A DNA stretch of 64,000 bases from Eubacteriales bacterium (lineage in GTDB: Bacteria > Bacillota > Clostridia > Oscillospirales > JAAYXM01), in contig JAZTYJ010000019.1 of the NCBI GenBank assembly GCA_045636865.1, positions 475-64,474 of the forward strand. Reading direction: 5' to 3'. How positions within the stretch are numbered: the stretch's first letter is position 1; each line of letters starts with the position of its first letter. The notes below the pieces were generated by a model, which ran no database searches, was not told the origin of the DNA, and worked only from the letters and a program-made list of their open reading frames with translations. Below are positions 45 to 28,430 of this stretch, in pieces. Position numbers and translations under genes: made by a program.

Positions 45-129
45 AATATCACCTCATACATAACTATAGCACAGAATAGGAAAAAATATTGACAAGTAGT
101 ATATAATCGTACTGGAATAATCCTGTTGT

Positions 130-360
130 TGCGATATAAAAAACTGACACATTGCAGAAACTTGCGGAGAGGCGATGCGGAGGGGCGGGGGGAGGTTTCC
201 TAGGCTCGCGGGAGCGAGGCGTGAGTTCTCCCCCGTTTTGCTACTTTTGCAATCAAAAGTAGGCCCGCCCGGCAGGGCTGACCAACTAAAAAACTTATCC
301 CAAAGCAAATTCGACTTATGCCGACAGGATTTAGTGATGGACGATGCAGACATCGTCCCC
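130..360. other. Unassigned GC-rich, highly structured segment (candidate ncRNA or long 5' leader)
   Basis: Nested helices are visible by eye: GGGCGGG 183-189 with CCCGCCC 264-270; GGGAG 190-194 with CTCCC 228-232; CTCGC-GGGA-GCGAG 205-218; CTACTTTTG-CAAT-CAAAAGTAG 241-262; GGACGATG-CAGA-CATCGTCC 339-358. No credible ORF. Confidence 0.3.
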
Positions 361-402
361 TAAAATAAAAAGCAAACAGAGTTTCGATTGTTGCCAGACA
401 AG

Positions 403-440
403 CAAACAACACCCAAGCAAGTTTTCTTGGGTGTTGTTTG
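403..440. terminator. 15-bp hairpin between the metG stop and the structured segment
   Basis: CAAACAACACCCAAG (403-417) pairs with CTTGGGTGTTGTTTG (426-440). A T-rich tail follows on the plus strand (441-447). It lies 5 nt beyond the metG stop on the minus strand. Confidence 0.6.
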
Positions 441-445
441 TTGTT

Positions 446-2365
446 TTAGTGAATCTGTGAGCCTTCCTCAACTGCGTCATCAACAAAGATGACCTTGCAG
501 CCGCCGTCGGGCATATCTGCGGCAAGGAGCATACCGTTGCTCTCAACGCCGCGGAGCTTTGCAGGCTTTAAGTTAGAAACAAGAATAATCTTTTTGCCAA
601 TAAGCTCTTCGGGCTTGTATTCCTTTGCAATTCCCGAAACGATCTGACGCTCTGCCTCACCTGTGTTGAGAATAAGCTTAAGAAGCTTATCTGCCTTCGG
701 AACGGGCTCGCATGCGACAACCTTTGCAACGCGAAGGTCAATTTTGTCAAACTCGTCGTATACGATTTCGTCCTTGTACGGAGCGACTTCCTTCTTCGGA
801 GCTTCGTTTTCCTTTGCAAGCTCCTCAAGCTTCTTTGCCTCATCAATTCGTGCAAATAAAACCTCGGCTGCACCAACTGCTTTTTCACCGCTTTCCGCAA
901 AAACTGAAAGGTCTGCGATTTCACATTTTTCAGCACCGATCTGAGCGATGATCTTTTCTGCGGTTTCCGGCATAAATGGCCAGAGAAGAGTGCCGATAAA
1001 GCGGATGGATTCGAGGAGATTGAAGAGAACCGTTTCAAGGCGGTCGCGCTTTTCTTCGTCCTTTGCAAGAGCCCACGGCTCTGTTTCGTCAATGTATTTG
1101 TTGCTGCGGCGTGCAAGTGAGATGATTTCTTCAAGAGCATCAGCAACGCGATACTCATCCATCTTAGCCTCAACGTTTGCGCGCGTAGAAAGTGCTGTCG
1201 CCTTAAGGTCTGCATCGCAGTCTGCAACGACACTCTTGTAGGAAACCTTGCCGTCAAAGTATTTGTTTGCCATCGCAACCGTACGGTTTACGAGGTTTCC
1301 GAGAGTGTTTGCAAGGTCAGCGTTGAAGCGTGCGATGATTGTTTCGTAAGTAATCGTTCCGTCCTGTGCAAACGGCATTTCGCGGAGAACGTAGTAGCGG
1401 ACAGCATCAACACCAAAATGACGGACGAGGTCATCTGCATAGATAACGTTGCCCTTTGACTTGCTCATCTTGTCGGTTCCGAATAAAAGCCACGGATGAC
1501 CGAAAACCTTTTTCGGAAGCGGCTCTCCGAGAGCCATGAGCATAATCGGCCAGTAAATCGTGTGGAAGCGGAGGATGTCCTTGCCTATGATGTGAACATC
1601 TGCCGGCCAGTATTTGTTATAAAGCTCACCTGAGCCGTCGGGAGAATAGCCGAGGGCTGTGATGTAGTTTGAGAGCGCGTCAATCCAGACGTAGATAACG
1701 TGCTTGTCGTCAAAGGTGACGGGAACGCCCCACTTGAATGATGAACGTGAAACACAGAGATCCTGAAGTCCGGGCTTTAAGAAGTTGTTTACCATCTCGC
1801 GCTTGCGGCTTTCCGGCTGAATGAACTCGGGATTTTCCTCGATGTGCTTCATAAGCGCATCCTGATACTTGCTCATCTTGAAGAAGTAAGCCTCTTCGTT
1901 TGCCTGCTTGACGGGGCGACCGCAGTCGGGGCAGACGCCGTTTTCAACCTGGGTGTCGGTGAAGAAGGATTCACACGGCACGCAGTACCAACCCTTGTAT
2001 TCGCCCTTGTATATATCGCCCTGATCGTAGAGCTTTTTGAAAATCTTCTGAACAGCCTCAACGTGATAATCGTCGGTTGTTCGGATGAACTTGTCATAGC
2101 TTGAGTTCATCATATCCCAGATTTCTCTGATCTCACCGGCTACACCGTCGACGTATTCCTGCGGAGTAACGCCTGTTTCCTTTGCAATATCTTCAATTTT
2201 CTGACCATGCTCGTCGGTTCCCGTAAGGAAAAACACATCGTAGCCCATTGAACGCTTGAAACGAGCGATAGCATCGGTAAGAACGACCTCATAGGTGTTT
2301 CCGATGTGGGGTTTTCTTGATGTGTAAGCAATGGCAGTTGTAATATAAAACTTTTTCTGCTCCAT
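446..2365 (-). CDS. metG: Methionyl-tRNA synthetase with C-terminal tRNA-binding domain
   Basis: ORF track 446..2410. Start moved to ATG 2365 (MEQKKFYITTAIAY), which has an AGAGGAAAC RBS. Class-I motifs PHIGN and KMSKS are present. Confidence 0.95.
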   Translation of the reverse strand: MEQKKFYITTAIAYTSRKPHIGNTYEVVLTDAIARFKRSMGYDVFFLTGTDEHGQKIEDIAKETGVTPQEYVDGVAGEIREIWDMMNSSYDKFIRTTDDYHVEAVQKIFKKLYDQGDIYKGEYKGWYCVPCESFFTDTQVENGVCPDCGRPVKQANEEAYFFKMSKYQDALMKHIEENPEFIQPESRKREMVNNFLKPGLQDLCVSRSSFKWGVPVTFDDKHVIYVWIDALSNYITALGYSPDGSGELYNKYWPADVHIIGKDILRFHTIYWPIMLMALGEPLPKKVFGHPWLLFGTDKMSKSKGNVIYADDLVRHFGVDAVRYYVLREMPFAQDGTITYETIIARFNADLANTLGNLVNRTVAMANKYFDGKVSYKSVVADCDADLKATALSTRANVEAKMDEYRVADALEEIISLARRSNKYIDETEPWALAKDEEKRDRLETVLFNLLESIRFIGTLLWPFMPETAEKIIAQIGAEKCEIADLSVFAESGEKAVGAAEVLFARIDEAKKLEELAKENEAPKKEVAPYKDEIVYDEFDKIDLRVAKVVACEPVPKADKLLKLILNTGEAERQIVSGIAKEYKPEELIGKKIILVSNLKPAKLRGVESNGMLLAADMPDGGCKVIFVDDAVEEGSQIH

Positions 2366-2400
2366 CTTTGTTTCCTCTTTCTGATAAACTATACAAAGAC

Positions 2401-2430
2401 AGTATAACATAAAAGTACACGTTTTTGCAA
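2401..2430 (-). promoter_or_regulatory. Candidate metG promoter
   Basis: On the minus strand: TTGCAA (2430-2425), 18 nt, then TGT-TATACT (2409-2401). This leaves a short leader with no room for a T-box. Confidence 0.45.
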
Positions 2431-2479
2431 CTGCTATACAGAAATATGAAAAATATTTGGAAAAGTTACAAATATGTAG

Positions 2480-2508
2480 TTGAAATCATAATGTTTTGAC
2501 GATATACT
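2480..2508 (+). promoter_or_regulatory. Candidate promoter of the VanW-domain gene
   Basis: TTGAAA (2480-2485), 17 nt, TATACT (2503-2508). Confidence 0.45.
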
Positions 2509-2558
2509 GTATATGTAAAAGAATGTATTTTTAACGAAAATATCAGGGGTTGAGTATT

Positions 2559-4364
2559 ATGAAATTATTTGGTGGCGGTAAGATTTCAAAGCCGGTAAAA
2601 ATTACGCTCGCAGCAGTTTGCGCGCTTGTGCTGATCTTTGCGGCGTTTACTGTTTATGCCTATACCTATAAAAACATTTTTCCGGGAGTTTCTGCCGCCG
2701 GCATTTCGCTTTCGGGAATGACTACAGAAGAGGCGATGCACGCGCTTGATGATGCGTGCCCCGAAAAGTATAACGGCAAAGAGATAGAAGTTGCGATAGA
2801 GGACTTTGAAACAATAACCGTCTCCGCAGACGAGCTTATGCTCAGCTTTGCGTCGGATACCATAGCAGAAAAGGCGTATGCGGTAGGACACGAAGGAAAC
2901 TTCTTTGAGAGGGTTTTCGGAGTGATGAAGGCATGCATCGGAGCAGCTGATGTCGGAGTTTCTGTTGAAGCGGACGAGGAGGCGTGTGCAGCTCTTTCCG
3001 AGAAAATTGCAAAATACGACATAAACCCCGTTGATGCAGCGTATACGATAGAGGATGAAACACTCATCCTTCATCCGCGTTCAGACGGCAAAAAGGTGGA
3101 TTCAAAAGAGTTTTTCGAAAGACTCTTTAACGCCTTTGCCGAAGAGAATTATGAAAAAATCACAGTTGAGAGAGTTCATGCAGAATCTGTTGCTCTTGAT
3201 ATTGACAAGGTTTATTCTGAAGTTCATGCAGAGGTCAAGGACGCATACGTCGAAAAGACGGATACGGGAAGCAAGATTGTTCCTCACGTTCTCGGTATTG
3301 ACTTTGACCTTGAAACCGCAAGAGCGGAATATGACAAGAATCCGAACGGAACAATCAGAATTCCGCTTGCGGTTACACAACCGAAGGTTTATACAAAACA
3401 CCTTGAAACAAATTTGTTTAAATACTGTCTTGCCGAGGTTGAAACATATTTCAGCCCGAAGAAGGTTGCAAGAACTGCAAACGTACGTCTTGCGGCAAGC
3501 CTTGTAAACGGAACGGTCCTGAATCCGGGCGAGGAATTTTCATACAACAAGGTTGTGGGCAAGCGTACCGCAGAGCGCGGATTTAAAGAAGCTGCGATTT
3601 TCTCGCAGGGAGAGGTTGTCGATGGTATCGGCGGCGGAATCTGTCAGGTTTCGTCAACTATCTATATGGCGGCACTCCGTGCGAATATGAAAATAACAGA
3701 GAGAAAGAACCACGCCTTCTACGTTGACTATACCCCGAAGGGGGAGGACGCAACGGTTGTTTACGGCTCTATCGACTTCCGCTTTGTAAATACAAGCGAA
3801 TATCCCATAAAAATCGTCGCAACATCAAAGAATAACTATATAAGAATTCAGATTATGGGAACGGAGCCCGATGAGAAGGTTACTGTAAAGCTTACGAAGA
3901 AAACTCACTCGACAACTCCGTATACGACTCGCGAGAAGACCGTAACCTCACTTGCCGCAGGAAAGAAAGAGGTGTACCAGAAGGGACAGGAAGGTCTCTC
4001 TATGTCCGTATATCGCAACGTTTATGACAAGAACGGAAAGCTTATCGAATCATATCTTGAGAATAACTCAAAATACAAGCCGATGCCGCAGATTATCCAT
4101 GTAGGTGCAGGCGCATCTGCTCCGGCTGTCAATACGACTCCGGAAGAGGAAAAACCGAAGGAAGAAACACCTGCACAGACACCTTCGGAGGATAAGCCCG
4201 CAGGTGAAAATGCGCAGGAGCAGGAAGCTACAACACCGCCGGCTGATAATACAAACGAGGCGCCGGCTGAGGCAACTCCTGCACCCGAGCAGAACACAGA
4301 GACACCGGAAACACCGGCTGAAAACACAAATGAGGAAACAAGCACAGAAACCCCTGCAGAATAA
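2559..4364 (+). CDS. VanW-domain protein with N-terminal membrane anchor and a Pro/Glu/Thr-rich low-complexity tail
   Basis: ORF 2550..4364. ATG 2559 is preferred because AGGGG lies upstream. VanW-type motif GGGICQVSSTIYMAAL. TM segment ITLAAVCALVLIFAAFTVYAY. Confidence 0.8.
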   Translation: MKLFGGGKISKPVKITLAAVCALVLIFAAFTVYAYTYKNIFPGVSAAGISLSGMTTEEAMHALDDACPEKYNGKEIEVAIEDFETITVSADELMLSFASDTIAEKAYAVGHEGNFFERVFGVMKACIGAADVGVSVEADEEACAALSEKIAKYDINPVDAAYTIEDETLILHPRSDGKKVDSKEFFERLFNAFAEENYEKITVERVHAESVALDIDKVYSEVHAEVKDAYVEKTDTGSKIVPHVLGIDFDLETARAEYDKNPNGTIRIPLAVTQPKVYTKHLETNLFKYCLAEVETYFSPKKVARTANVRLAASLVNGTVLNPGEEFSYNKVVGKRTAERGFKEAAIFSQGEVVDGIGGGICQVSSTIYMAALRANMKITERKNHAFYVDYTPKGEDATVVYGSIDFRFVNTSEYPIKIVATSKNNYIRIQIMGTEPDEKVTVKLTKKTHSTTPYTTREKTVTSLAAGKKEVYQKGQEGLSMSVYRNVYDKNGKLIESYLENNSKYKPMPQIIHVGAGASAPAVNTTPEEEKPKEETPAQTPSEDKPAGENAQEQEATTPPADNTNEAPAEATPAPEQNTETPETPAENTNEETSTETPAE

Positions 4365-4373
4365 GGAGAAATA

Positions 4374-5204
4374 ATGGACAGAAAAATCATACGAAAAAGA
4401 ATAAAGCTGATGGCGCAAGGGCTGCTTGCGGGAAGCTGGCTTCGCTCATTTTTGATTGTTTTGCTTCAGACACTGCTCTATGCGGCAATTATCAGCTTTC
4501 TCCCGATTCGCATTCCGACACTTTCGGAGATTGCAAATTTTAGTGGCACACAATACGAAATGCTTATGATGTTTGTTCCGAAGGTAATAACGGAAAGGAC
4601 TATCGCGCTTTGCGTGATAACGCTTATTTTGTATGTTTTGGTAATGGCTCCGTTTTCCGTCGGCATATGCAGATTTTTCCTTCGTGTTGCAAGCGGAGCA
4701 AAAGGAAAAATTTCGGATGTTTTCTCGGTATATACAAATCTCAGAACCGTGTTTTCATCTGTTTGGTTGTCAATTATCATCTTTTTGCTCTCTGCTCTCT
4801 GGATGATTGTTTTTATGTTGATTCCGATAACGGTTACGTTTTGCGGTTCAATAATAAGATCACCGCTTCTTGTAAGTTTTGCAAGCTTGCTTGTGCCGAT
4901 ATCCGCGGTTTTCGGACTTGTCTGGATAAGCAGATATGAATTTGCAAGGTTTATTCTTGCAGAAGGTAGGGCAAAAGGTGCATTTGCGGCAATTTCGGAG
5001 TGCTTTTCTCTTGTGAAAAACCGCACGGGTGAGTGCCTTGCACTTCGCACATCGTATATTCTCTGGGACGTTGCATCTTTTTATATTTATCCGCTTGGTT
5101 TTGTGTATTTTTCGCTTTTTAATACGGTATACGCGCAATACCTCTACTATTTTCGTCAAGGCGAGATGAATATGGGCGAAAATTCTAAAAATACCGAATT
5201 GTAA
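4374..5204 (+). CDS. Polytopic membrane protein, DUF975-like
   Basis: 276-aa ORF with several hydrophobic spans. The N-terminal pattern (K..AK..L.G.W) recalls DUF975. The family call is from memory only. Confidence 0.45.
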   Translation: MDRKIIRKRIKLMAQGLLAGSWLRSFLIVLLQTLLYAAIISFLPIRIPTLSEIANFSGTQYEMLMMFVPKVITERTIALCVITLILYVLVMAPFSVGICRFFLRVASGAKGKISDVFSVYTNLRTVFSSVWLSIIIFLLSALWMIVFMLIPITVTFCGSIIRSPLLVSFASLLVPISAVFGLVWISRYEFARFILAEGRAKGAFAAISECFSLVKNRTGECLALRTSYILWDVASFYIYPLGFVYFSLFNTVYAQYLYYFRQGEMNMGENSKNTEL

Positions 5205-5207
5205 GTG

Positions 5208-5236
5208 TTGACAAACAAAAAACACGGTGGTATAAT
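5208..5236 (+). promoter_or_regulatory. Consensus sigma-A type promoter of the aro operon leader
   Basis: TTGACA (5208-5213), exactly 17 nt, TATAAT (5231-5236). Confidence 0.75.
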
Positions 5237-5265
5237 CATAAAAAAATCGAAAGGCGATAAAAGTA

Positions 5266-5358
5266 ATGAAAGCTTCTCATAAGGCATATGAAATATTTTG
5301 CTACTTTTACTTTTATTTTTTTACAAAATCAAAAGTAAGAGTGATTTCTGTTGCTTAA
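5266..5358 (+). CDS. Candidate leader peptide MKASHKAYEIFCYFYFYFFTKSKVRVISVA (30 codons, Phe/Tyr run)
   Basis: Hand translation. ATG 5266, AAAGG 11 nt upstream, stop TAA 5356-5358. Codons 11-19 read F C Y F Y F Y F F. The ORF is below the length cut-off of the ORF track. Confidence 0.55.
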   Translation: MKASHKAYEIFCYFYFYFFTKSKVRVISVA

Positions 5359-5388
5359 AATAGAGAGGTTTTTTATATAAAAAACTTC

Positions 5389-5429
5389 AAAAGGCTATGC
5401 AGTAGAATCACTGCATAGCCTTTATTTTT
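5389..5429 (+). terminator. Intrinsic terminator (attenuator) immediately upstream of aroF
   Basis: GGCTATGCAGT (5393-5403), loop AGAATC, ACTGCATAGCC (5410-5420), then TTTATTTTT. An A-tract precedes the stem. It ends 22 nt before the aroF ATG. Confidence 0.75.
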
Positions 5430-5451
5430 CGGATTCAGGGAGGATTATAAG

Positions 5452-6456
5452 ATGATTGCAGTACTTAAGAGAGATGTTCCGAAAGCGCAGGTTGATAACC
5501 TCATTGCGTGGCTAAATGAACAGGATATCCGCGTTCACATTTCCGAGGGTGAGTTCCAGACGGTTCTCGGCTTTATCGGTGACACCTCGAACGTTGACGT
5601 TGAGCTTATAGAAGGGCTTGATATTGTTCAGAACGTTACACGCATAACAGAGCCGTTCAAAAGTGCAAACCGCAAGTTTCACCCCGAAAATACGGTCGTA
5701 AGCATAGGCGATGTCAAAATCGGCGACGGAAACTTTGCGCTTATCGCAGGTCCGTGTTCTGTTGAGTCGAAGGAGCAGATTTTAGGGATTGCAGAGTCAG
5801 TTAAAAAATCGGGTGCAGGTCTTCTCCGAGGCGGTGCATTCAAACCGCGCACATCTCCATATGACTTCCAGGGGCTTAAGTCTGAGGGTATCGACTTTCT
5901 CCTTGAGGCAAAGGAGGCAACCGGAATGCCGATAGTTACGGAGATTATGAACGCAAACCATCTCCCGATGTTTGAAAAGGTAGATGTTATTCAGGTCGGC
6001 GCAAGAAATATGCAGAATTTTGAGCTTTTAAAGGAGCTTGGAAGAACAAACAAAACAATCCTCCTAAAGCGCGGGCTTGCAAATACATTGAAAGAGCTCC
6101 TCATGAGTGCTGAATATATTATGGCAGGCGGAAACGAGAACATCATCCTCTGCGAGCGCGGAATCCGCACGTTTGAAACATACACGAGAAACACGCTTGA
6201 CCTCTCTGCTGTTCCGATGCTCAAGGAGCTTTCACACCTCCCTGTTGTTGTTGATCCGAGCCACGCAAGCGGAATTTCAAGGCTCGTAAAGCCGATGGCT
6301 CTTGCAGCGGCGGCCTGCGGAGCAGACGGAATAATGATAGAGGTGCACAACAACCCCAAGCGCGCACTCTGCGACGGTGCACAGTCATTAACTCCCGAGC
6401 AGTTTGACGATGTTGCGCGTGGTATATTTGCGGTAAGGCAGGCGATAGGACAATGA
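5452..6456 (+). CDS. aroF: 3-deoxy-7-phosphoheptulonate (DAHP) synthase, type I-beta, with N-terminal ferredoxin-like regulatory domain
   Basis: 334 aa. Motifs GPCSVES and KPRTSPYDFQG. A ~70-aa N-terminal extension resembles the Thermotoga-type enzymes. RBS GGGAGG. Confidence 0.9.
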   Translation: MIAVLKRDVPKAQVDNLIAWLNEQDIRVHISEGEFQTVLGFIGDTSNVDVELIEGLDIVQNVTRITEPFKSANRKFHPENTVVSIGDVKIGDGNFALIAGPCSVESKEQILGIAESVKKSGAGLLRGGAFKPRTSPYDFQGLKSEGIDFLLEAKEATGMPIVTEIMNANHLPMFEKVDVIQVGARNMQNFELLKELGRTNKTILLKRGLANTLKELLMSAEYIMAGGNENIILCERGIRTFETYTRNTLDLSAVPMLKELSHLPVVVDPSHASGISRLVKPMALAAAACGADGIMIEVHNNPKRALCDGAQSLTPEQFDDVARGIFAVRQAIGQ

Positions 6457-7298
6457 CGATAGGTATAGTCGGGCTCGGTCTTATCGGAGGATCACTCGCA
6501 AAGGCATACAAGTTCAATACCGACTTTACCATATACGGCGCGGATAACGACGAAACAACCTACAAACGCGCAGTTCTGGTAAATGCCGTTGACGGACGCC
6601 TCACGAAAGATAATATTTCAGAATGTGATTTTATTTTTCTCGCGCTTTATCCGGGTGCCGCAATCAGCTATATGGAAGAAAATGCAGAGTTCATCCGCAA
6701 GGATGCGTGTGTTATAGACTGCTGTGGTGTAAAGGAAACTGTTTGCCCAAGGCTTTTTGAGCTGGCAGAAAAATTCGGGTTTGAGTACGTCGGCGGACAT
6801 CCGATGGCAGGTCGTCAGTTTTCGGGATTTCGTTATGCGCAGGAAAATCTCTTCTCGGGCGCATGTATGATTCTTGTTCCGAAAAAAGGAGAAGAAATTG
6901 CCTTTCTTGAAAAGGTAAAGGCAGTTCTTACAAAGGCGGGCTTTGCTCACGTTACGGTGACGACAGCAGAACGCCACGACGAGATAATTGCATACACCTC
7001 CCAGCTCGCCCACGTCGTTTCAAACGCATATGTAAAAAGCCCGAGTGCCGAAGGACACAAAGGCTTCTCTGCAGGAAGCTATCGCGACCTCACGCGCGTT
7101 GCCAAGCTTTCGGAAGGTATGTGGACCGAGCTTTTCCTCGCAAACCGGGGAAACCTCGTGTCTGAAATAGATTTTCTTATTGATTCTCTGACAGAGTACA
7201 GAGATGCGCTTTGCGAAAACGATGCAGAAAGACTTATGATGCTTCTGCGAGAAGGTCGCATGCGCAAGGAAAGGATAGATGAGGAATGGAGAGAATAG
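6453..7298 (+). CDS. tyrA: Prephenate dehydrogenase
   Basis: ATGA overlap with the aroF stop. Rossmann motif IVGLGLIGGS and GGHPMAG motif. Confidence 0.85.
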   Translation: MTIGIVGLGLIGGSLAKAYKFNTDFTIYGADNDETTYKRAVLVNAVDGRLTKDNISECDFIFLALYPGAAISYMEENAEFIRKDACVIDCCGVKETVCPRLFELAEKFGFEYVGGHPMAGRQFSGFRYAQENLFSGACMILVPKKGEEIAFLEKVKAVLTKAGFAHVTVTTAERHDEIIAYTSQLAHVVSNAYVKSPSAEGHKGFSAGSYRDLTRVAKLSEGMWTELFLANRGNLVSEIDFLIDSLTEYRDALCENDAERLMMLLREGRMRKERIDEEWRE

Positions 7299-8347
7299 AG
7301 GTCTCAACCGGAAGAAGTTATGAAGTTCTTATCGGTTCAGGTATAATTTCGGAGATCGGCAAAAAAGCAAAAGAACTCTTTCCGAAAACAAAGAAGGCGG
7401 CAATTATTTCAGATGAAACAACCCACGCTCTCTTTTCCGGAAATGTAAAAAATGCGCTTGAAGACGATGGCTTTGAGGTGCTTGAGATCACCCTGCCTGC
7501 AGGCGAGAATTCAAAAAGTGCAGAGAACTACGTAAAGCTTTTAAATTTGCTTGCAAACGAAAAGTTTTCAAGGAGCGACATCATCGTTGCGCTTGGCGGC
7601 GGAGTTATCGGTGACCTTTCGGGATTTGTTGCGGCAAGCTACCTTCGCGGAATCTCTTTTATTCAGATTCCGACAACGCTTCTTGCGGCGGTGGATTCAT
7701 CCGTCGGAGGAAAAACTGCGATAAACCTCGACGCAGGCAAAAATCTTGCGGGCGCATTCTGGCAGCCGTCGCTTGTTCTTTGCGACACGGATATAATATC
7801 AGACCTTCCCGACGACATTTTTGCAGACGGAATGGCAGAGGTTATAAAGTACGGCGCGATAAGAAGCGAGAAAATTCTTAAGCTCATAACAGACGGCGCA
7901 AAAGAAAATCTTATCAGGATAATTTCAGAGTGTGTAGGGATTAAGCGCGATATAGTGTCAAACGATGAGTTTGATGTCGGTGAGCGTCAGCTTTTAAATT
8001 TCGGGCACACACCGGCACATTCGATAGAAAAAATGAGCGGATTTGAGATAAGCCACGGAAGAGCTGTTGCAATCGGTATGTGCATTATGGCAAAAGCATC
8101 CGAAACTCTCGGCTATTGCAAAGAAAACGTGTCAGATGAAATTGCTTGTCTTTGCAGAAAGTATTCGCTCCCAACAGAGTGTGAGTTTTCGGAAGATGTG
8201 CTTTTTGAAGTTGCAATGTCAGACAAAAAACGCTCGGGCGGATACATAACTTTGGTTCTTCCGAAAATGAGAGGGGAGAGCTTCCTTCTCAAAATACCAG
8301 AGGATGAGATGATAAAGTTTTTCAAAGCAGGATTGGAGAAAGCATAA
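7286..8347 (+). CDS. aroB: 3-dehydroquinate synthase
   Basis: 353 aa. GGGVIGDLSGFVAASYLRGI and HGRAVAIGM motifs. Overlaps the tyrA end. Confidence 0.9.
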   Translation: MERIEVSTGRSYEVLIGSGIISEIGKKAKELFPKTKKAAIISDETTHALFSGNVKNALEDDGFEVLEITLPAGENSKSAENYVKLLNLLANEKFSRSDIIVALGGGVIGDLSGFVAASYLRGISFIQIPTTLLAAVDSSVGGKTAINLDAGKNLAGAFWQPSLVLCDTDIISDLPDDIFADGMAEVIKYGAIRSEKILKLITDGAKENLIRIISECVGIKRDIVSNDEFDVGERQLLNFGHTPAHSIEKMSGFEISHGRAVAIGMCIMAKASETLGYCKENVSDEIACLCRKYSLPTECEFSEDVLFEVAMSDKKRSGGYITLVLPKMRGESFLLKIPEDEMIKFFKAGLEKA

Positions 8348-9612
8348 TGAAAGCTTCGGTTTCTTGCCGCGCACCGCACGGTAGGGTGCAGGTAATCCCG
8401 TCAAAATCAGTCGCTCACAGAGCACTCATTTCGGCGGCTCTGTCGGATGAGGAAACTAAAATAATATGCAACGCAAGGTCAAAGGACATTGAGGCAACGG
8501 CAAGAGTTTTGTCTTCCCTTGGTGCGGAAATTTCGGAAGAGGGCGGATGCTTTCTCGTAAGACCGATAAAAAACTTCCGTGATTCAGATCTTGACTGTGG
8601 CGAGAGCGGTTCAACACTGCGTTTTTTGATTCCCGTCGCGGCAACCATCTCAAAAGAGACAACGTTTGACGGCAAAGGCCGTCTTCCCGAAAGACCGATA
8701 TCAGAGCTTCTTAACTGTCTTTCCGAAAACGGCGCGGAATATGAGTATAACGGACGTCTTCCGCTTAAAATGAGGGGCGGACTTGAATTCGGCAGATTTA
8801 AAATTTCGGGAAAGGTCAGCTCACAGTTCATATCAGGGCTTCTGTTTGCGCTTCCGCGGCTTTCGGGAGACAGTATCATTGAAATTTGCGGCAATCTTGA
8901 ATCCTCAAAATATGTTGAAATAACACTCGATGTGATAAAACAGTTTGGAATCCTTGCCGGGTGGAGAGGCAATGAAATACATATAAAAGGAAACCAGAGC
9001 TACATATCACCGAAGAGCTTTTCTGTAGAGGGAGATTGGTCAAACGCGGCATTCTTCGCATCTCTCGGGGCATTCTCGGAGGAGGGAATAACCTGCACGG
9101 GAATGAATATGAAAAGCATTCAGGGAGATTACGAGATTCTCTCGCTCCTTGAAAGATTCGGTGCAAATGTAACTGAAAACGAAGATTCATTCACCGTAAA
9201 GAAAGGAAAGCTTTGCGGAATATCAATAGATGCATCGGAGATTCCCGACCTTGTGCCCGTGCTTTCGGTTGTTGCATCCGCGGCAGAGGGTGAGACGGTG
9301 ATTTATAACGCGTCGCGCCTTCGCATCAAGGAAAGCGATAGAATAAAAACAACGGTGAAAATGATAAAAAGTCTCGGCGGCGATATCCGTTCGGAAGACG
9401 ATAGCATCATAATCCGCGGCAGAGGGAAACTTCGCGGCGGAGTGGTGGATGGAGAAAACGACCACAGAATCGTTATGAGTGCGGCAATAGCCTCGGCGAT
9501 ATGCAAAGAGCCGGTAATTATTACGGGTGCCGAGGCGGTTGAAAAGTCATACGGCGACTTTTTTGAACGCTTTGCAGATCTCGGTGCAGACGTTTCTATA
9601 TCGGAGGAATAA
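8347..9612 (+). CDS. aroA: 3-phosphoshikimate 1-carboxyvinyltransferase (EPSP synthase)
   Basis: 421 aa. LDCGESGSTLRFL and DHRIVMSAAIAS motifs. TAATG overlap with aroB. Confidence 0.9.
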   Translation: MKASVSCRAPHGRVQVIPSKSVAHRALISAALSDEETKIICNARSKDIEATARVLSSLGAEISEEGGCFLVRPIKNFRDSDLDCGESGSTLRFLIPVAATISKETTFDGKGRLPERPISELLNCLSENGAEYEYNGRLPLKMRGGLEFGRFKISGKVSSQFISGLLFALPRLSGDSIIEICGNLESSKYVEITLDVIKQFGILAGWRGNEIHIKGNQSYISPKSFSVEGDWSNAAFFASLGAFSEEGITCTGMNMKSIQGDYEILSLLERFGANVTENEDSFTVKKGKLCGISIDASEIPDLVPVLSVVASAAEGETVIYNASRLRIKESDRIKTTVKMIKSLGGDIRSEDDSIIIRGRGKLRGGVVDGENDHRIVMSAAIASAICKEPVIITGAEAVEKSYGDFFERFADLGADVSISEE

Positions 9613-9616
9613 GGAT

Positions 9617-10681
9617 ATGAGTTCGATTTTTGGTGAAAATTTAAAAGTTTCGATTTTCGGTCAGTCGCATTCGGATGCGATGGGGGTTGTGATCGAGGGA
9701 TTTCCCGCTGACTTTTCGATTGATGAGGAAAAGCTCCTTGAGTTTATGGCAAGGCGCGCTCCGGGAAAAGGCGCACATACAACCGCCCGCAAGGAAGGCG
9801 ACGTGCCTGAGTTTGTTTCCGGTGTGTTCGATGGGAAAACGACAGGCGCTCCGATTTGTGCGATAATCAGAAATACCGATATGCGCTCAAAGGACTATGA
9901 TTCGCTTAAACGCGTGCCGCGTCCGGGACACGCCGACTTCACCGCATTTATGAAGTACGGCTCCGCCCACGACATCCGCGGCGGAGGTCAGTTTTCCGGT
10001 CGTCTCACGGCTTGTCTCTGTATAGCGGGAGGGCTCTGCCTTCAGTATCTTAAGACGCGCGGCGTGAAAATTGCGGCGCACGTATCACGAATCGGAAACG
10101 CAGAGGATAAGCTCTTGAATCCCGTATCACCGGAGCTTTCGGAGATTATTCAGGGAGATATTCCGACACTCTCTGAAGCTGCGGCAGAGAAGATGATGGC
10201 AGAAATTTTAAGTGCAAAGGAAGACCTCGACTCTGTCGGTGGCGTCATCGAATGTGCGGCGGTTGGAGTTCCCAAGGCTTTGGGTGAGCCGATGTTCGGC
10301 GGAGTTGAAAATCGGATAGCATCAATCGTTTTCGGAATCCCTGCAGTAAAGGGTGTTGAATTCGGCGCAGGATTTTCATCCGCAACTATGCGGGGAAGCG
10401 AGTGCAACGATGCATTTATCCTCGAAAAGGGAAGAGTGAAAACAGAGACGAACAACCACGGTGGCGCGCTTGGAGGAATAACCTCGGGAATGCCGATAAT
10501 TTTCCGCGCGGCAATAAAGCCGACACCGTCGATTGCAAAAAAACAAAAGAGTGTTGACCTTGCAAAAATGTGCGAGACGCATCTTGAAATTTGCGGCCGC
10601 CACGATCCGTGCATCGTGCCGAGAGCCGTGCCCGTTATGGAAGCCGCGCTCGCAATAGCAATTTTGGATATGATGATTTAG
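9617..10681 (+). CDS. aroC: Chorismate synthase
   Basis: ORF 9527..10681. Start moved to ATG 9617 (MSSIFGENLKVSIFGQSH), which follows GGAATAAGG and the aroA stop. RPGHADF motif. Confidence 0.9.
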   Translation: MSSIFGENLKVSIFGQSHSDAMGVVIEGFPADFSIDEEKLLEFMARRAPGKGAHTTARKEGDVPEFVSGVFDGKTTGAPICAIIRNTDMRSKDYDSLKRVPRPGHADFTAFMKYGSAHDIRGGGQFSGRLTACLCIAGGLCLQYLKTRGVKIAAHVSRIGNAEDKLLNPVSPELSEIIQGDIPTLSEAAAEKMMAEILSAKEDLDSVGGVIECAAVGVPKALGEPMFGGVENRIASIVFGIPAVKGVEFGAGFSSATMRGSECNDAFILEKGRVKTETNNHGGALGGITSGMPIIFRAAIKPTPSIAKKQKSVDLAKMCETHLEICGRHDPCIVPRAVPVMEAALAIAILDMMI

Positions 10682-10693
10682 GAAGTGTTTAAA

Positions 10694-11836
10694 ATGGATA
10701 TCAATAATCTCAGAAAAGACATTGACAGTATCGACCGTGAAATTTCAGAGCTTCTTAAAAAGAGAATGGAAACTGCGGCAAAAATTGGTGAGTATAAGAG
10801 GGAAAACGGACTTCCGGTATACGATGCAAAGCGCGAGAGCGAGCTTCTTGACAAGATTGAGGGTTACACGAAAGAAGAGTTTTCTGCTTATGCAAGGGTT
10901 ATCTATCAGACGATTATGGACACCTCGCGTTCATACCAGAGAAAGCTCCTTTTAAAGGATTCTCCCATCCGCACAGCTATGGAAGCTGCTATCGGAAAAA
11001 CCGAAAAGCTCTTTCCTGAGAGTGCGGTTGTCGCGTGTCAGGGCGTTGCAGGTGCATATTCACAGATAGCTTGCGAAAAGCTTTTCAAGAAGCCGAGCAT
11101 TATGTATTTCGGAAGCTTTGAAGACGTTTTCCGCGCGGTTGACAAAAAGCTCTGCAAATACGGCGTTCTGCCGATCGAAAACAGTACGGCAGGTTCAGTA
11201 AATAAGATTTACGACCTTATGGCAAAGTATAAATTCCATATTGTCCGCGGTGCGCGAATTCAGGTTGGACATGCGCTCCTTGCAAAGCGCGGAGTTAACC
11301 TTTCGGACATCACGGAAATCTTCTCTCATGAGCAGGCTATAAATCAATGCAGCGAGTTTTTGGAGAAGAATAAGAACATAAAGGTAACACGCGTTGAGAA
11401 TACAGCGGTTGCAGCACGTATGGTTGCAGAATCCGACAGACGCGACATTGCGGCGCTTTCGTCTCCCGCATGCGCAGAGCTCTATGAGTTGTCACCCATT
11501 TTCGATAACGTCTGCGATCATACGGGAAACTATACGAGATTTATCTGCATCTCAAAAGAGCTTGAGATTTATCCCGGTGCCGACAAGACGAGCCTTATGC
11601 TCAAGATTCCGCATAAGCCCGGTTCACTCTACCGAATCCTTGCGCGCATAAATTCTCTCGGCATAAACCTTGAAAAGCTCGAAAGCCGCCCGAAACCGGG
11701 AAGTGACTTTGAGTTTATGTTCTATTTTGACCTTGGCGCATCTGTCTACTCTCCTGCGCTTTTCGAGCTTATATGCGACCTCGATAACGACATTCCTGGA
11801 TTTAAATATTTCGGAAGCTATAAGGAGATTGTTTAA
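10694..11836 (+). CDS. pheA: Bifunctional chorismate mutase / prephenate dehydratase with ACT domain
   Basis: ORF 10685..11836. ATG 10694 follows AGGAAG. It has an N-terminal CM helix region, the ENSTAGSV PDT motif and a C-terminal ACT-like TSLMLKIPHKPGSLYRIL. Confidence 0.9.
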   Translation: MDINNLRKDIDSIDREISELLKKRMETAAKIGEYKRENGLPVYDAKRESELLDKIEGYTKEEFSAYARVIYQTIMDTSRSYQRKLLLKDSPIRTAMEAAIGKTEKLFPESAVVACQGVAGAYSQIACEKLFKKPSIMYFGSFEDVFRAVDKKLCKYGVLPIENSTAGSVNKIYDLMAKYKFHIVRGARIQVGHALLAKRGVNLSDITEIFSHEQAINQCSEFLEKNKNIKVTRVENTAVAARMVAESDRRDIAALSSPACAELYELSPIFDNVCDHTGNYTRFICISKELEIYPGADKTSLMLKIPHKPGSLYRILARINSLGINLEKLESRPKPGSDFEFMFYFDLGASVYSPALFELICDLDNDIPGFKYFGSYKEIV

Positions 11837-12676
11837 GTGAAAAAGGATATCGTTTTAAAAGTAAATGAAGATGGAGAACTTCTTAAATTCCTCTACGCCG
11901 CGCTCTCGTCACAGCCGAAAGGAAAGGTTAAGTCATACCTTGAGCACCGTCAGGTGCTTGTCAACGGTATAGTAACGACGAAGTTCAATTTACCGCTTGA
12001 AGCGGGAGATGAGGTCAGAGTTTCTCTCTCTGAAGGAAGCGTAAAACCTCACGGAATTGATATTATCTATGAGGATTCGGATTTCGTTGCGGTAAACAAA
12101 CCGGCAGGACTTCTCACCGTAACCGACGGTGAGCGGATTCACACGGCATATTCAAAGCTTTCGGAGAGCCGCAAAGGTGAGATTTTTGTTGTCCACCGTC
12201 TTGACCGTGACACATCTGGAGTTTTGCTCTTTGCAAAAAAGAGAGAGTTTTGCACACTTTTGCAGGAGAGTTGGAATGACCTTGTATATCTTCGCGAATA
12301 CACGGCTATCTGCGAGGGTGTTTTTGAAAGAAAAAAGGGAAGATGTGATACACTTATTGCTGAAAACGCGGTGCACGTCATGTATTCATCGAGCACGGGA
12401 AAGCGCGCAATAACTGATTACGAGGTCGCGCGTGAAAACGAAAACTATTCCCTCGTAAAAGTCAGGCTCTTAACAGGGCGTAAGAATCAGATTCGCGTTC
12501 ATATGAAGGAGCTCGGACATCCCGTTGTTGGAGACAAAAAGTACGGAAGCACGCAGAATCCCATAGGGCGTCTCGGACTTCACGCGTCAGCACTCGGCTT
12601 TACTCATCCCGTAACGGGAAAAGAGATTATCATCCGCGCAAAGAGCGAGAGAAAATTCACATTGCCGAAAAAATAG
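11837..12676 (+). CDS. RluA-family pseudouridine synthase with N-terminal S4-like domain
   Basis: GTG start one nt after the pheA stop. Catalytic motif HRLDRDTSGVLLFAK. Confidence 0.85.
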   Translation: MKKDIVLKVNEDGELLKFLYAALSSQPKGKVKSYLEHRQVLVNGIVTTKFNLPLEAGDEVRVSLSEGSVKPHGIDIIYEDSDFVAVNKPAGLLTVTDGERIHTAYSKLSESRKGEIFVVHRLDRDTSGVLLFAKKREFCTLLQESWNDLVYLREYTAICEGVFERKKGRCDTLIAENAVHVMYSSSTGKRAITDYEVARENENYSLVKVRLLTGRKNQIRVHMKELGHPVVGDKKYGSTQNPIGRLGLHASALGFTHPVTGKEIIIRAKSERKFTLPKK

Positions 12677-12679
12677 AAA

Positions 12680-12712
12680 AGAACCACGTCTGTATGTTAC
12701 AGACGTGGTTCT
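12680..12712. terminator. Bidirectional hairpin terminator
   Basis: AGAACCACGTCTGTA, loop TGT, TACAGACGTGGTTCT, flanked by A- and T-runs. Confidence 0.8.
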
Positions 12713-12715
12713 TTA

Positions 12716-12919
12716 TCAATATCCGAGTTTTTTGATTCGCTCTTGTTCAGCTTTTATATATTTTTCTTTATATGCACCGGGGTTTTCGTATGAGAATCCG
12801 TCCATAACTTCGGGACGACCGGCGTTGAAGTCGGTGACGGTGAACTTTCCGTTATCCTCAATGCGATAAGTATAGACATCAAAATTCAATGTTTTTGTGT
12901 TTCCGTCATTGCTTTTCAA
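12716..12919 (-). CDS. Doubtful small ORF (67 aa, TTG start, no RBS)
   Basis: Present in the ORF track only. No Shine-Dalgarno and no recognisable motif. It could be a gene remnant. Confidence 0.2.
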   Translation of the reverse strand: MKSNDGNTKTLNFDVYTYRIEDNGKFTVTDFNAGRPEVMDGFSYENPGAYKEKYIKAEQERIKKLGY

Positions 12920-12969
12920 AACACTTTATGATAAGATATACACAAAGATTTACAGAAGGAGTGATTGTC

Positions 12970-14055
12970 TTGAAAATGACATTCCGCTGGTACGGCGAAG
13001 GCAACGATAAGATAAGCCTTTCCGACATCAAGCAGATTCCCGGCGTAGACGGTATCGTCTGGGCTCTTCACCACAAGATGCCGGGCGAAATCTGGGAGGA
13101 AGAAGAAATCGCAGAAGTCAAGCGCCAGCTTGATGAGTACGGTTTTAATATGGACGTTGTTGAATCAGTAAACGTTCACGACGATATCAAAATCGGTCTT
13201 CCCACAAGAGACAAATACATAGAAAACTACAAGCAGTGTATCAGAAACCTCGCAAAATACGGCGTCAAGGTTATCTGCTACAACTTTATGCCGATTTTTG
13301 ACTGGACAAGAAGTAACCTCTTCCATCCGGTTGGTGACGGTTCAACAGCTCTTTACTACGAAAAGGGTATGATTCAGGACGATTACAACGCAATGGCTGA
13401 ATATATCCTCAATTTCACAGAAAAGTACAATATGTCATTCCCCGGCTGGGAGCCTGAGAGAATGGCAAAGCTTGATGAGCTCTTCAAGGCATACGAGGGC
13501 GTTGACCACGAAAAGCTCTGGGCAAACCTCAAATACTTCCTCGAGGCACTTATGCCGACCTGCCGCGAGTGCGACGTCAAAATGGCTATCCATATGGACG
13601 ATCCACCATGGGATATCTTCGGTCTTCCGCGTCTCCTTGTTGACGAGGCAAGCATCGACAGATTCTTAAAGATGGTTGACGATGAATACAACTGCCTCAC
13701 TCTCTGCTCGGGAAGCCTCGGTGCAAACCCGGACAACAACGTTGCAGACATCGTCCGCAAGCATTGTGACAGAATCGCATTTGCTCACATCAGAAACGTC
13801 AAGCACTTCCCGAACGGCGACTTCACGGAAGCATCACACCGCGACTGCGATGGCGATACGGGTGTTCTTGAAATCGTTAAGGCATACCACGACTGCGGCT
13901 TTGAAGGATATATCCGCCCTGACCACGGCAGACACCTCTGGTCAGAAGGCCCCGGAAGCGTCCGCCCGGGCTACGGTCTTTACGACCGCGCTCTCGGAAT
14001 TATGTATATGCACGGAATCTGGGATACTCTTGACCGCATAAAGGGAATAAAGTAA
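12970..14055 (+). CDS. uxuA: Mannonate dehydratase
   Basis: ORF 12889..14055. Start placed at TTG 12970 (MKMTFRWYG...), 8 nt after AGGAG. ATG 12976 is an alternative. The N-terminus is typical of UxuA. Confidence 0.85.
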   Translation: MKMTFRWYGEGNDKISLSDIKQIPGVDGIVWALHHKMPGEIWEEEEIAEVKRQLDEYGFNMDVVESVNVHDDIKIGLPTRDKYIENYKQCIRNLAKYGVKVICYNFMPIFDWTRSNLFHPVGDGSTALYYEKGMIQDDYNAMAEYILNFTEKYNMSFPGWEPERMAKLDELFKAYEGVDHEKLWANLKYFLEALMPTCRECDVKMAIHMDDPPWDIFGLPRLLVDEASIDRFLKMVDDEYNCLTLCSGSLGANPDNNVADIVRKHCDRIAFAHIRNVKHFPNGDFTEASHRDCDGDTGVLEIVKAYHDCGFEGYIRPDHGRHLWSEGPGSVRPGYGLYDRALGIMYMHGIWDTLDRIKGIK

Positions 14056-14073
14056 ACAAAAGTTTGCGAAAAA

Positions 14074-14105
14074 CAAGACCGCATCTGTTCTCCGGTGCGG
14101 TCTTG
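14074..14105 (+). terminator. uxuA terminator hairpin
   Basis: CAAGACCGCA pairs with TGCGGTCTTG across a 12-nt loop, followed by AATTTTGATTT. Confidence 0.6.
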
Positions 14106-14184
14106 AATTTTGATTTCAAGGTCATTTTTATGCAAAATAACAAAAAAATTTTGGTTTTTTTGCTAATATTTTCAAAAAATATAG

Positions 14185-14213
14185 TTGTAAATTGAAAAGA
14201 AATCGTTTATAAT
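14185..14213 (+). promoter_or_regulatory. Candidate gap promoter
   Basis: TTGTAA (14185-14190), 17 nt, TATAAT (14208-14213). Confidence 0.55.
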
Positions 14214-14237
14214 ATATAGTAATGTGAAAAAAATTAG

Positions 14238-15260
<1,023 letters not shown>

Positions 15261-25355: not shown

Positions 25356-25441
25356 TGGTGCCGGTGGTGGGACTTGAACCCACACGGTGTTGCCACCAAC
25401 GGATTTTGAGTCCGTCACGTCTGCCATTCCATCACACCGGC
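25356..25441 (-). tRNA. tRNA-Leu (anticodon CAA), CCA encoded
   Basis: The reverse complement reads GCCGGTGTGATGGAATGGCAGACGTGACGGACTCAAAATCCGTTGGTGGCAACACCGTGTGGGTTCAAGTCCCACCACCGGCACCA. It has a 7-bp acceptor stem, anticodon loop CT-CAA-AA, a long variable arm and a GGTTCAAGTCC T-arm. Confidence 0.9.
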
Positions 25442-26887: not shown

Positions 26888-27241
26888 GGGGGCGTAAAGG
26901 CTTCGACGGGGATGTTGAAGCACGAGTAGCGGGCAGAGGCGCAGAGCCGCTTTAAAAGCTGCAACTTAATTTTTATAAATTAACTAACAACAATAAACTT
27001 ATTGCTGCTTAATTAATCAGCAGCCATCTTCCCCGGGAGGACCACGGCCCGGGAGTAAGGTGTCATGCAGTGGTGAACGTGATCGGGCAAAGCTTTGAAC
27101 CCGGCATGTAAGATGAAGCTACCAAGTTTGGAAGCCCGCCTGTCGGCGTCCATACGAGGGAATGTAAACATCAGGCTGCGCCCGGAGAAACTTTTGTGAA
27201 TACGTTTTCGGACGGGGGTTCGACTCCCCCCGCCTCCACCA
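26888..27241 (+). ncRNA. ssrA: tmRNA (SsrA)
   Basis: 5' GGGGGCGTAAAGGCTTCGACGGGG and 3' GGACGGGGGTTCGACTCCCCCCGCCTCCACCA. The acceptor stem GGGGGCG/CGCCTCC has the G3-U70 pair. An internal reading frame ends ...LTNNNKLIAA-TAA (26999-27001 stop region). Confidence 0.95.
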
Positions 27242-28060: not shown

Positions 28061-28139
28061 GATTTTATCGGAGATGTGTGATAAAATGAAAACATAAAAC
28101 CAAATATATTCACACAGAGTGTCGGTTGTGCCGCAAATG

Positions 28140-28322
28140 CTTTTCGGGTAAGGCATAATTGGTGGAAAGGGAATGGGGTGAGAATCCCCTGCGATAACTG
28201 TCGGTGTGTGCATCGAAGTTTTTATATCCGTTATCGAAAGATAGTCATTGGGAAACCGAGAAGGCAGGATATAAAAATGCGGACTTTTTGTCTATATGGT
28301 GTAAGCCACAAGACCTGCTTTG
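28140..28322 (+). promoter_or_regulatory. Cobalamin (B12) riboswitch aptamer
   Basis: GGTGGAAAGGGAATGGGGTGAGAATCCCCTGCG...ACTGTCGG core (28161-28205), plus the B12 box AGCCACAAGACCTGC (28304-28318). Confidence 0.85.
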
Positions 28323-28430
28323 ATATTATTCCGCAAGCGCGGCTTCTGCACAGGAATAGTATTTTCGGATTTGAGGAAAAAGGTTTTTTGCACTTGTGTC
28401 CGGATTGTGAGCAATCACAGGAAAACTCAG

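Follow-up and report, generated by a model that had tools for sequence, protein, structure and literature searches.

Classical attenuators are textbook regulators of enterobacteria. They are seldom found in Firmicutes, which mostly rely on T-boxes, TRAP and riboswitches. The pheL-pheA and pheM-pheST leaders of Escherichia coli combine a short open reading frame (ORF) containing a Phe run with alternative 1:2, 2:3 and 3:4 hairpins, an intrinsic terminator and stall-dependent read-through. Two described systems lie in front of aroF itself. The aroR leader peptide of Corynebacterium glutamicum (F-Y-F) is reported to mediate attenuation demonstrated by experiment (Neshat et al. 2014, as summarized in PMC11802643). 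The uORFC-13-1 motif was found exclusively upstream of aroF in 24 representatives from Acholeplasma and unassigned environmental sequences, and comprises promoter-like boxes, a ribosome-binding site (RBS), a start codon, a U-rich Phe-coding run, an additional conserved helix and an adjoining intrinsic terminator (Brewer et al. 2021, PMC8632094). Here, we analyzed a stretch of 64,000 nucleotides (nt) from a Eubacteriales bacterium (assembly GCA_045636865.1, contig JAZTYJ010000019.1, positions 475 to 64,474 of the forward strand; hereafter the window), in which a short Phe/Tyr-rich ORF and a terminator precede an aromatic amino acid operon. The leader is very probably a classical ribosome-mediated (leader-peptide) transcription attenuator of the aroF-tyrA-aroB-aroA-aroC-pheA operon, a prediction that draws on comparison of related loci and on modeled RNA folds. 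It probably represents an undescribed family in Oscillospirales-type Clostridia, with uORFC-13-1 compared by description only.

The window leader shares the architecture of the E. coli leaders and differs from pheL in alternating Phe and Tyr codons, in preceding the whole common pathway together with tyrA and pheA rather than pheA alone, and in residing in a Clostridia-type Firmicute rather than a gamma-proteobacterium. The Rfam Phe_leader model (RF01859) has a gathering score of 55; here it reached 20 bits and covered only the terminator region (5350-5428), which places the leader outside that family. Like C. glutamicum aroR, again compared by description, it is a mixed Phe/Tyr leader peptide before a DAHP-synthase operon; aroR belongs to Actinobacteria and has three regulatory codons, in contrast to 7-9 in the Clostridia leader. 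Every feature by which uORFC-13-1 was compared (position upstream of aroF, RBS, start codon, Phe-coding U run and adjacent terminator) is present in the window leader, as far as a comparison by description goes. That motif was described as containing “at least one” Phe codon, with Tyr unmentioned (PMC8632094), and its reported range leaves out the cultured Clostridia carriers found here (Sporobacter, Pseudoflavonifractor and Flintibacter). It was also absent from the Rfam 15 matches in 5100-5550 and in 20 diverse loci with a leader.

Leader-peptide attenuators that replace T-boxes have precedents elsewhere in Firmicutes. His attenuators were first noted in Bacilli (Bacillus cereus group) (PMC2965389) and later predicted in Peptostreptococcaceae (C. 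difficile) and Erysipelotrichales (PMC2965389, PMC9413887), and a Leu-rich ilv attenuator peptide is known from S. aureus (PMC5794164). These serve other amino acids and operons, have narrow taxonomic ranges and show no sequence relation to the window leader. An earlier sequence-only reading of this DNA had called such an attenuator unusual for a Clostridia-type genome, which holds for Firmicutes generally, with these leaders, C. glutamicum aroR and the Acholeplasma uORFC-13-1 motif as precedents. The aromatic genes of Bacilli and Clostridium are described under T-box or TRAP control (PMC2494555). Such systems have the same goal as the aroF leader, namely to sense charged tRNA or Trp, and likewise choose between terminator and antiterminator within the 5' leader, whereas their sensor is uncharged tRNA or an RNA-binding protein and the one proposed for the aroF leader is the translating ribosome.

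Searches of family databases returned no described counterpart. At the gathering score, no Rfam family matched the leader in the window, and at E<=10 the region 5100-5550 yielded terminator-only noise, with TD-2, Srn266, rli40 and Phe_leader aligning below threshold to generic hairpin or terminator features. T-box gave no match at E<=10 in 5100-5550, nor did it reach the gathering score anywhere in the window or among 33 related loci, namely 13 without a leader and 20 diverse loci with one. Six leader peptides had no match in NCBIfam or Pfam at E<=10, and the 224-motif paper of Weinberg 2017 holds no aroF, Phe or uORF (upstream ORF) entry. No description of a Clostridia aroF Phe/Tyr leader was found in the literature outside subscription-only sources.

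The individual elements claimed in the sequence-only reading were recovered in the window (Table 1). Its perfect TTGACA-17-TATAAT promoter is present at 12/12 positions, includes an extended -10 TG (5228-5229) and is the sole perfect match in a promoter scan across 4000-14500; transcription of the leader would start near 5243. The 30-codon ORF, with its ATG, upstream AAAGG and eight Phe/Tyr codons out of nine (codons 11-19), is as that reading had stated, and the run is proposed to provide the sites of ribosome stalling under low Phe-tRNA or Tyr-tRNA. As expected for an attenuator, the ORF is positioned between the promoter and the first structural gene, aroF. A scan of the entire 64 kb window for mini-ORFs with amino acid runs found none besides the aroF leader. 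The strong terminator was likewise verified, with a 14-bp stem of -21.4 kcal/mol and a U tract that leaves 22 nt to the aroF start codon, and NCBIfam matches bear out the assignment of DAHP synthase, TyrA and PheA to the operon behind it.

RNA folding places these elements in mutually exclusive structures. Free RNA ending at 5389 adopts, as its minimum free energy (MFE) structure, a long hairpin (P1) of four helices, namely a core of 18 base pairs (bp; 5302-5319:5325-5343) followed outward by 5290-5294:5344-5348, 5282-5286:5352-5356 and 5268-5280:5360-5373, with a segment energy of -29.5 kcal/mol. Both the codon run and a conserved box, the 5' strand of the antiterminator, lie within P1, so that the box is sequestered by a 1:2 pairing that competes for the antiterminator strand. 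The pairing of the codon run noted previously (5303-5314 with 5331-5342, 12 bp including one G-U) is contained in this fold and grows into its 18-bp core. The AT-rich hairpin noted further downstream also forms, with 10 bp. As antiterminator, the sequence-only reading had offered AGTGATT (5340-5346) pairing with AATCACT (5406-5412) and called it weak. The pairing itself stands, as the core of a predicted 14-bp helix (5340-5354:5399-5412) that co-evolves across loci and is mutually exclusive with the terminator. The antiterminator segment reaches -21.8 kcal/mol, and its duplex -15.7 kcal/mol compared to -7.65 +/- 2.36 kcal/mol for shuffles, 0.4% of which were equal or better. The fold of 5240-5451 as a whole had a z-score of -6.2, with 0/200 shuffles as stable.

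To model translation, the ribosome was represented by a 28-nt footprint constraint and the transcript end was varied. Whichever of codons 11-19 the footprint covered, RNA that ended at 5413 had an MFE structure containing the antiterminator helix, formed around the 5365-5388 hairpin. Conversely, a ribosome on the stop codon, or full-length RNA, gave the terminator. The unconstrained MFE fold contains P1 and the terminator only and never the antiterminator, which thus becomes visible only once ribosome occupancy and transcript length are modeled. Such folds, with the codons ribosome-occupied or free, had been proposed in the sequence-only reading as a check for mutually exclusive structures; in these models the predicted fold demonstrably switches with ribosome position.

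Conservation in relatives, which the same reading had named as a test capable of refuting it, was clearly positive and included compensatory changes. A protein scan with AroF, limited to one genome per species, yielded 80 loci at 67-91% identity, of which 79 were usable and one had too little upstream DNA to judge. Most belong to Oscillospiraceae, Acutalibacteraceae, Ruminococcus, Lachnospiraceae and unclassified Clostridia metagenome-assembled genomes (MAGs), and several are from cultured strains; cultured carriers of the leader include Sporobacter termitidis DSM 10068, Flintibacter faecis BX5, Pseudoflavonifractor sp. AF19-9AC and Hominicoprocola fusiformis. A short ORF with 6-9 Phe/Tyr per 9-residue window was found 150-290 nt upstream of aroF in 68/79 loci, and five further loci (L029, L041, L069, L073 and L075) have a weaker but recognizable leader, for a total of ~73/79. 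In three loci aroF stands directly behind another gene, and in only about four is it preceded by nothing more than a short, plain promoter region. An intrinsic terminator follows in nearly every locus, 50-90 nt past the run and 20-80 nt before aroF. Over the 66 loci on which the counts of promoters, frames, codons and geometry were made, a promoter match of at least 10/12, with its -10 box ending ~30 nt before the leader ATG, was present in 56, compared to 1/66 shuffled controls.

The gene upstream of the leader in the window is common only to its three closest relatives (L001-L003), while the order aroF-tyrA-aroB-aroA is kept in 54/80 loci; because the upstream neighbor varies and the aro order persists, the leader can be assigned to the aro operon. 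The AT-rich spacer hairpin is present in the close relatives L001 and L002, and other loci often carry a different spacer hairpin. In all, the leader was found in ~70 species-level genomes and 26 metagenome contigs, which puts its occurrence at more than 90 relatives among gut Clostridia. Comparison of these loci demonstrates, at the level of sequence, that the elements exist and are conserved as a unit together with the reading frame. The ribosome-mediated attenuator proposed in the sequence-only reading thus gains support from an ORF, aromatic run, terminator, start codon with Shine-Dalgarno (SD) motif, and promoter at a fixed distance that are conserved in ~70 other species.

Two smaller groups of loci depart from this distribution. 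L009, L012 and L030 are close AroF loci with only a short AT-rich promoter region and no leader, terminator or T-box, which suggests that the attenuator was lost or replaced in some lineages. L016 (labeled as a Treponemataceae MAG) and L075 (labeled Alloprevotella sp.) are contigs assigned to non-Firmicute bins and contain a Clostridia-type aroF with the same leader, pointing to mis-binning or horizontal transfer.

Across the 66 loci, leaders begin with ATG in 62 and have an SD-like motif upstream in 56. The underlying repeat, UUUUAC, is stop-free in all frames, and F-T-F-T or L-L-L-L would be equally possible readings. Even so, an ATG with an SD motif opens the F/Y frame in 64/66 loci and the other two frames together in 5/66. 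The runs comprise 258 Phe, 244 Tyr and 2 Trp codons, a Phe/Tyr-rich and Trp-poor composition that fits an operon that makes Tyr and Phe and carries no trp genes. Past the run, the C-termini of the peptides are not conserved while the underlying nucleotides are: depending on the species, the box GUGAUUUnUGCUGC is read as ..VISAA.. (KVKVISAA) or as ..SDLCC.. (KSKSDLCC), and elsewhere it lies after the stop codon. Since it is read in differing frames or lies past the stop, the box is conserved as RNA; the run is conserved as codons.

The position of the leader stop codon relative to the antiterminator strand is similarly constrained, as it lies at most 15 nt upstream in 27 loci, inside in 9, after it in 30 and never further upstream (66/66); the gap between run and strand has a median of 16 nt. 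With such placement the geometry fits the classical model in every species, in which a stalled ribosome would leave the strand free and a non-stalled one would cover it. From these sequence features the leader appears to be translated, and its codon content suggests that stalling would respond to both Phe and Tyr. The Phe:Tyr codon counts are 220:219 for leaders with tyrA behind aroF and 34:15 for those in which aroB comes next and tyrA is lacking (L024, L027, L031, L045, L063 and L058). Leaders of stand-alone aroF genes, with no aro genes after them (L054, L065, L041 and L073), are Tyr-dominated (YYYYYFY, YAYYYVLY and AYYYALY). That the Phe:Tyr mix of the leader tracks the downstream genes is only suggestive, as these groups represent few independent lineages.

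Co-evolution of the predicted helices was assessed with and without an alignment. For the alignment-free approach, RNAduplex energies of strands from the same locus were compared by permutation with those from different loci; for the antiterminator, the 45 nt after the run were paired with the 5' half of the terminator over 66 distinct loci. Mean energies were -17.1 (same-locus) versus -12.6 kcal/mol (cross-locus) for the antiterminator duplex and -24.2 versus -17.9 kcal/mol for P1 (both p<1e-4). Compensatory changes were seen in the antiterminator as AGCGAUU:AAUCGCU (L010 and L035) and AGUAAUUC:GAAUUACU (L019 and L022), and in P1 as UACCGC:GUGGUA (L016). Within P1, GUAAAAG pairs with the run, and GCUGC of the box has its partner in a conserved GCAGC, part of the stretch coding for “FAA(E)Y” immediately ahead of the run. 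Pairs were then counted on a MAFFT alignment of 38 species, with shuffled or slid partners as controls. For P1 and the terminator, 75% of cells were paired compared to 39-49% when slid; the P1 core was 81.5% paired, with GCAGC:GCUGC pairs conserved or co-varying, and the terminator had 88% of cells paired and changes on both sides in 13/14 stem pairs. The antiterminator was paired in 79% of cells (31-55% when slid), and its covariation score of 0.218 exceeded that of shuffles (0.169; 0/500). Overall, these comparisons demonstrate that the sequences of all three predicted helices (P1, antiterminator and terminator) co-evolve.

Sequences from 34 species, with the window and its closest relatives L001-L003 left out, were used to build a covariance model (R1). 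It matches the window at 5266-5429 (+) over model positions 1-167 of 167 with 89.3 bits (E=6.6e-18), and the next-best match in the window reached 27.9 bits on the opposite strand of the same terminator. The model recovered 31 held-out leaders, all just upstream of aroF, and none in loci judged leaderless. When metagenomes were scanned with an RNA-only motif (run, gap and box), 26 contigs were obtained, all of which match the model at 62-131 bits, and 25/26 have a same-strand aroF that begins 83-210 nt further downstream. A full leader that scores 106 bits lies in the metagenome contig L083 (3312-3454, minus strand) without aroF behind it. There, a second promoter-like site and ~200 nt precede the genes 3109..1787 and 1790..45 (-), which encode a PaaK-like AMP-ligase and an IorA-like thiamine pyrophosphate (TPP)/ferredoxin oxidoreductase, enzymes expected for making the keto-acids of Phe and Tyr from arylacetates. 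The L083 leader may control this alternative aromatic route, or may be the remnant of a rearrangement.

In the proposed mechanism, transcription would begin at the promoter (5208-5236) and a ribosome would translate the 30-codon leader. With an ample supply of charged tRNA-Phe and tRNA-Tyr, this ribosome would pass the F/Y codons and, as it approached the stop codon at 5356, cover the box (5340-5354); P1 would re-bury the box after ribosome release. Unable to pair with the emerging terminator, the box would leave the terminator stem (5390-5423) to form, and a leader RNA of ~185 nt would be released. When Phe-tRNA or Tyr-tRNA is scarce, the ribosome would stall within 5296-5322, melting the 5' strand of P1 and freeing the box, which could then pair with 5399-5412 before the 3' arm of the terminator is complete, so that the polymerase would read into aroF. 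Pausing of RNA polymerase and synchrony between ribosome and polymerase are presumed in this scheme.

Several observations weigh against it. For the mechanism to work, the distance between ribosome and RNA polymerase must stay within ~100 nt, and transcription and translation in B. subtilis are reported to be largely uncoupled (Johnson 2020, reviewed in PMC7858274). The SD motif of the window leader (AAAGG) is weak and, at 11 nt, slightly distant from the ATG. P1 was expected to block the antiterminator thermodynamically in the absence of a ribosome, which was not clearly seen in the window fold: at equilibrium, the antiterminator also forms in free RNA truncated at 5413, so that a block by P1 without translation would rest on folding order and on the comparative data. 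Full-length RNA, in turn, always prefers the terminator, and read-through would therefore depend on kinetics, as in trp. Regarding the comparative data, the permutation tests of the antiterminator and P1 carry no correction for phylogeny, and in the MAFFT alignment the antiterminator had 8 double-change pairs compared to 7.0 in shuffles (163/500) and was mostly conserved rather than co-varying, a result attributable to the strong conservation of the box. Finally, C. glutamicum aroR is reported to respond to Phe limitation and not to Tyr, despite the F-Y-F leader (PMC11802643).

The aroR result would fit a leader of the same architecture that senses Phe only, with the Tyr codons as a by-product of the UUUUAC repeat pairing with GUAAAA in P1; as the run is also an RNA pairing partner, UAC and UAU could be constrained by the RNA. 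We consider this unlikely, since a UUU-ACU frame (F-T-F-T) would serve the pairing equally well and the F-Y frame is nonetheless the one kept in 64/66 loci. Tyr-dominated runs such as YYYYYFY and YAYYYVLY exist, the F:Y ratio shifts with the presence of tyrA, and the operon makes both TyrA and PheA. A larger departure would be an untranslated RNA switch (a T-box-like tRNA sensor, a riboswitch or a TRAP/PyrR-like protein attenuator) in which the ORF is incidental. Firmicute aromatic genes are classically under T-box or TRAP control, and the conserved box and hairpins could in principle form a binding site, yet neither T-box nor any other Rfam family matched 5100-5550 at E<=10 beyond terminator noise, and for the leader none reached its gathering score in the window or the 33 related loci. 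The ~185 nt leader is too short and simple for a T-box and has no specifier loop or T-box sequence. Frame, ATG, SD motif and aromatic codons are conserved while the remaining peptide is not, and stop placement follows ribosome geometry in 66/66 loci, which together make such a switch extremely improbable.

Because a strong promoter, an ORF and a strong terminator resemble a self-contained unit, the leader could also be an independent small gene (a hydrophobic aromatic micropeptide or small RNA) without a regulatory link to aroF. This would leave unexplained why, in ~70 genomes and 25/26 of the contigs found by motif alone, it immediately precedes a same-strand aroF, and why the peptide is conserved only in its F/Y run. 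It would also leave aroF without a promoter, with only 22 nt between U tract and ATG, and an unconditional terminator would not need an antiterminator that co-evolves with it; we find this explanation hardly credible. Stalling might instead act mainly through Rho access, mRNA stability or translation of aroF, given that some attenuators use an RBS sequestor in place of a terminator (PMC9413887) and that the full-leader MFE structure pairs 5248-5253 with 5426-5431. However, nearly all loci have a canonical GC-rich stem and U tract, and in the window the hairpin ends at least 8 nt before the aroF SD motif (GGGAGG, 5438-5443), which is unsequestered in every predicted fold. An output of this kind is thus very doubtful, and attenuation by ribosome stalling at an intrinsic terminator remains our preferred reading.

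As this mechanism itself is not new, the significance of the leader lies in regulation and annotation within this lineage, in its breadth and in coupling, rather than in the principle. One device appears to control the common aromatic pathway together with its Tyr and Phe branches across a group of gut and rumen Clostridia that is large and has received little study. The work provides an annotation rule and a covariance model for a mini-ORF missed by gene callers, and the leader is a candidate natural Phe/Tyr-responsive expression element for these Clostridia. It also offers a test case of whether ribosome-polymerase coupling in Clostridia is close enough for attenuation, considering the uncoupled transcription reported for B. 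subtilis. Tentatively, and with slightly more reservation than confidence, we suggest a wider interpretation in which an undescribed RNA/uORF family is the main regulator of shikimate-Phe-Tyr operons across Oscillospirales and neighboring gut and rumen Clostridia. This family would sense Phe-tRNA and Tyr-tRNA with a codon mix tuned to the downstream genes (~1:1 with tyrA, Phe-biased without it and Tyr-only before stand-alone aroF), and its wide conservation would imply tight, pause-synchronized coupling in these Firmicutes, unlike the “runaway” transcription of B. subtilis.

Table 1. Predicted features of the aroF leader and the operon behind it, in window coordinates.
Feature	Coordinates	Strand	Basis or detail
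Sigma-70-type promoter of the leader transcript	5208..5236	+	TTGACA 5208-5213, 17 nt spacer, TATAAT 5231-5236
Shine-Dalgarno AAAGG of the leader ORF	5250..5254	+	Sequence; 11 nt before ATG
Leader peptide ORF, 30 codons + TAA	5266..5358	+	ATG 5266, TAA 5356-5358; encodes MKASHKAYEIFCYFYFYFFTKSKVRVISVA
P1 long hairpin (regions 1:2), putative anti-antiterminator	5268..5373	+	MFE of free RNA to 5389
Regulatory codon run (region 1), codons 11-19 = F C Y F Y F Y F F	5296..5322	+	Sequence
Conserved box AGUGAUUUCUGUUGC, putative antiterminator 5' strand (region 2)	5340..5354	+	Family consensus GUGAUUUnUGCUGC
AT-rich spacer hairpin, 10 bp	5365..5388	+	5365-5374:5379-5388; nested in the loop of the antiterminator helix
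Intrinsic terminator (regions 3:4)	5390..5429	+	Stem 5390-5403:5410-5423, loop AGAAUC, then AUUUUU
Putative antiterminator 3' strand (region 3)	5399..5412	+	Covers, in the terminator, the distal 5' arm, the loop and 3 nt at the start of the 3' arm
Putative regulated operon	5452..12676	+	NCBIfam matches, terminator scan
aroF (DAHP synthase)	5452-6456	+	NCBIfam
tyrA	6453-7298	+	NCBIfam
aroB	7286-8347	+	NCBIfam
aroA	8347-9612	+	NCBIfam
aroC	probable start ATG 9617, to 10681	+	NCBIfam and start inspection
pheA (chorismate mutase/prephenate dehydratase, CM/PDT)	10685-11836	+	NCBIfam
RluA-family pseudouridine synthase	11837-12676	+	NCBIfam
Terminator-like hairpin after the operon	12678-12714		Terminator scan

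Within the operon, the mechanically called aroC ORF begins at GTG 9527, which gives it an 86-nt overlap with aroA. Translation probably starts instead at ATG 9617, which closely follows the aroA stop codon (9610-9612) and a GGAGG at 9603-9607. The RluA-family gene begins 1 nt past the pheA stop codon and ends at the hairpin 12678-12714, and from this position it seems to be the last gene of the aromatic operon, as an odd passenger.

Upstream of the leader, an ORF at 4374-5204 encodes a hydrophobic protein of 276 aa with no NCBIfam family match and ends 3 nt before the -35 box of the leader promoter. No terminator separates the two, so read-through from this gene would also enter the leader. 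It is preceded by a gene with a VanW-like domain (2550-4364). The leader terminator was considered as a terminator of the 4374-5204 gene, which was rejected as the promoter and leader intervene, and also because the upstream gene differs in all loci except L001-L003. Since the same hairpin (5390-5423) has an A tract on its upstream side and a U tract on its downstream side, it scores as a terminator in either orientation, although the minus-strand version serves no convergent gene. At other sites in the window, Rfam identified a tmRNA (26888-27241, 158.6 bits), a tRNA (25359-25441, minus strand) and a cobalamin riboswitch (28134-28336, 40.3 bits).

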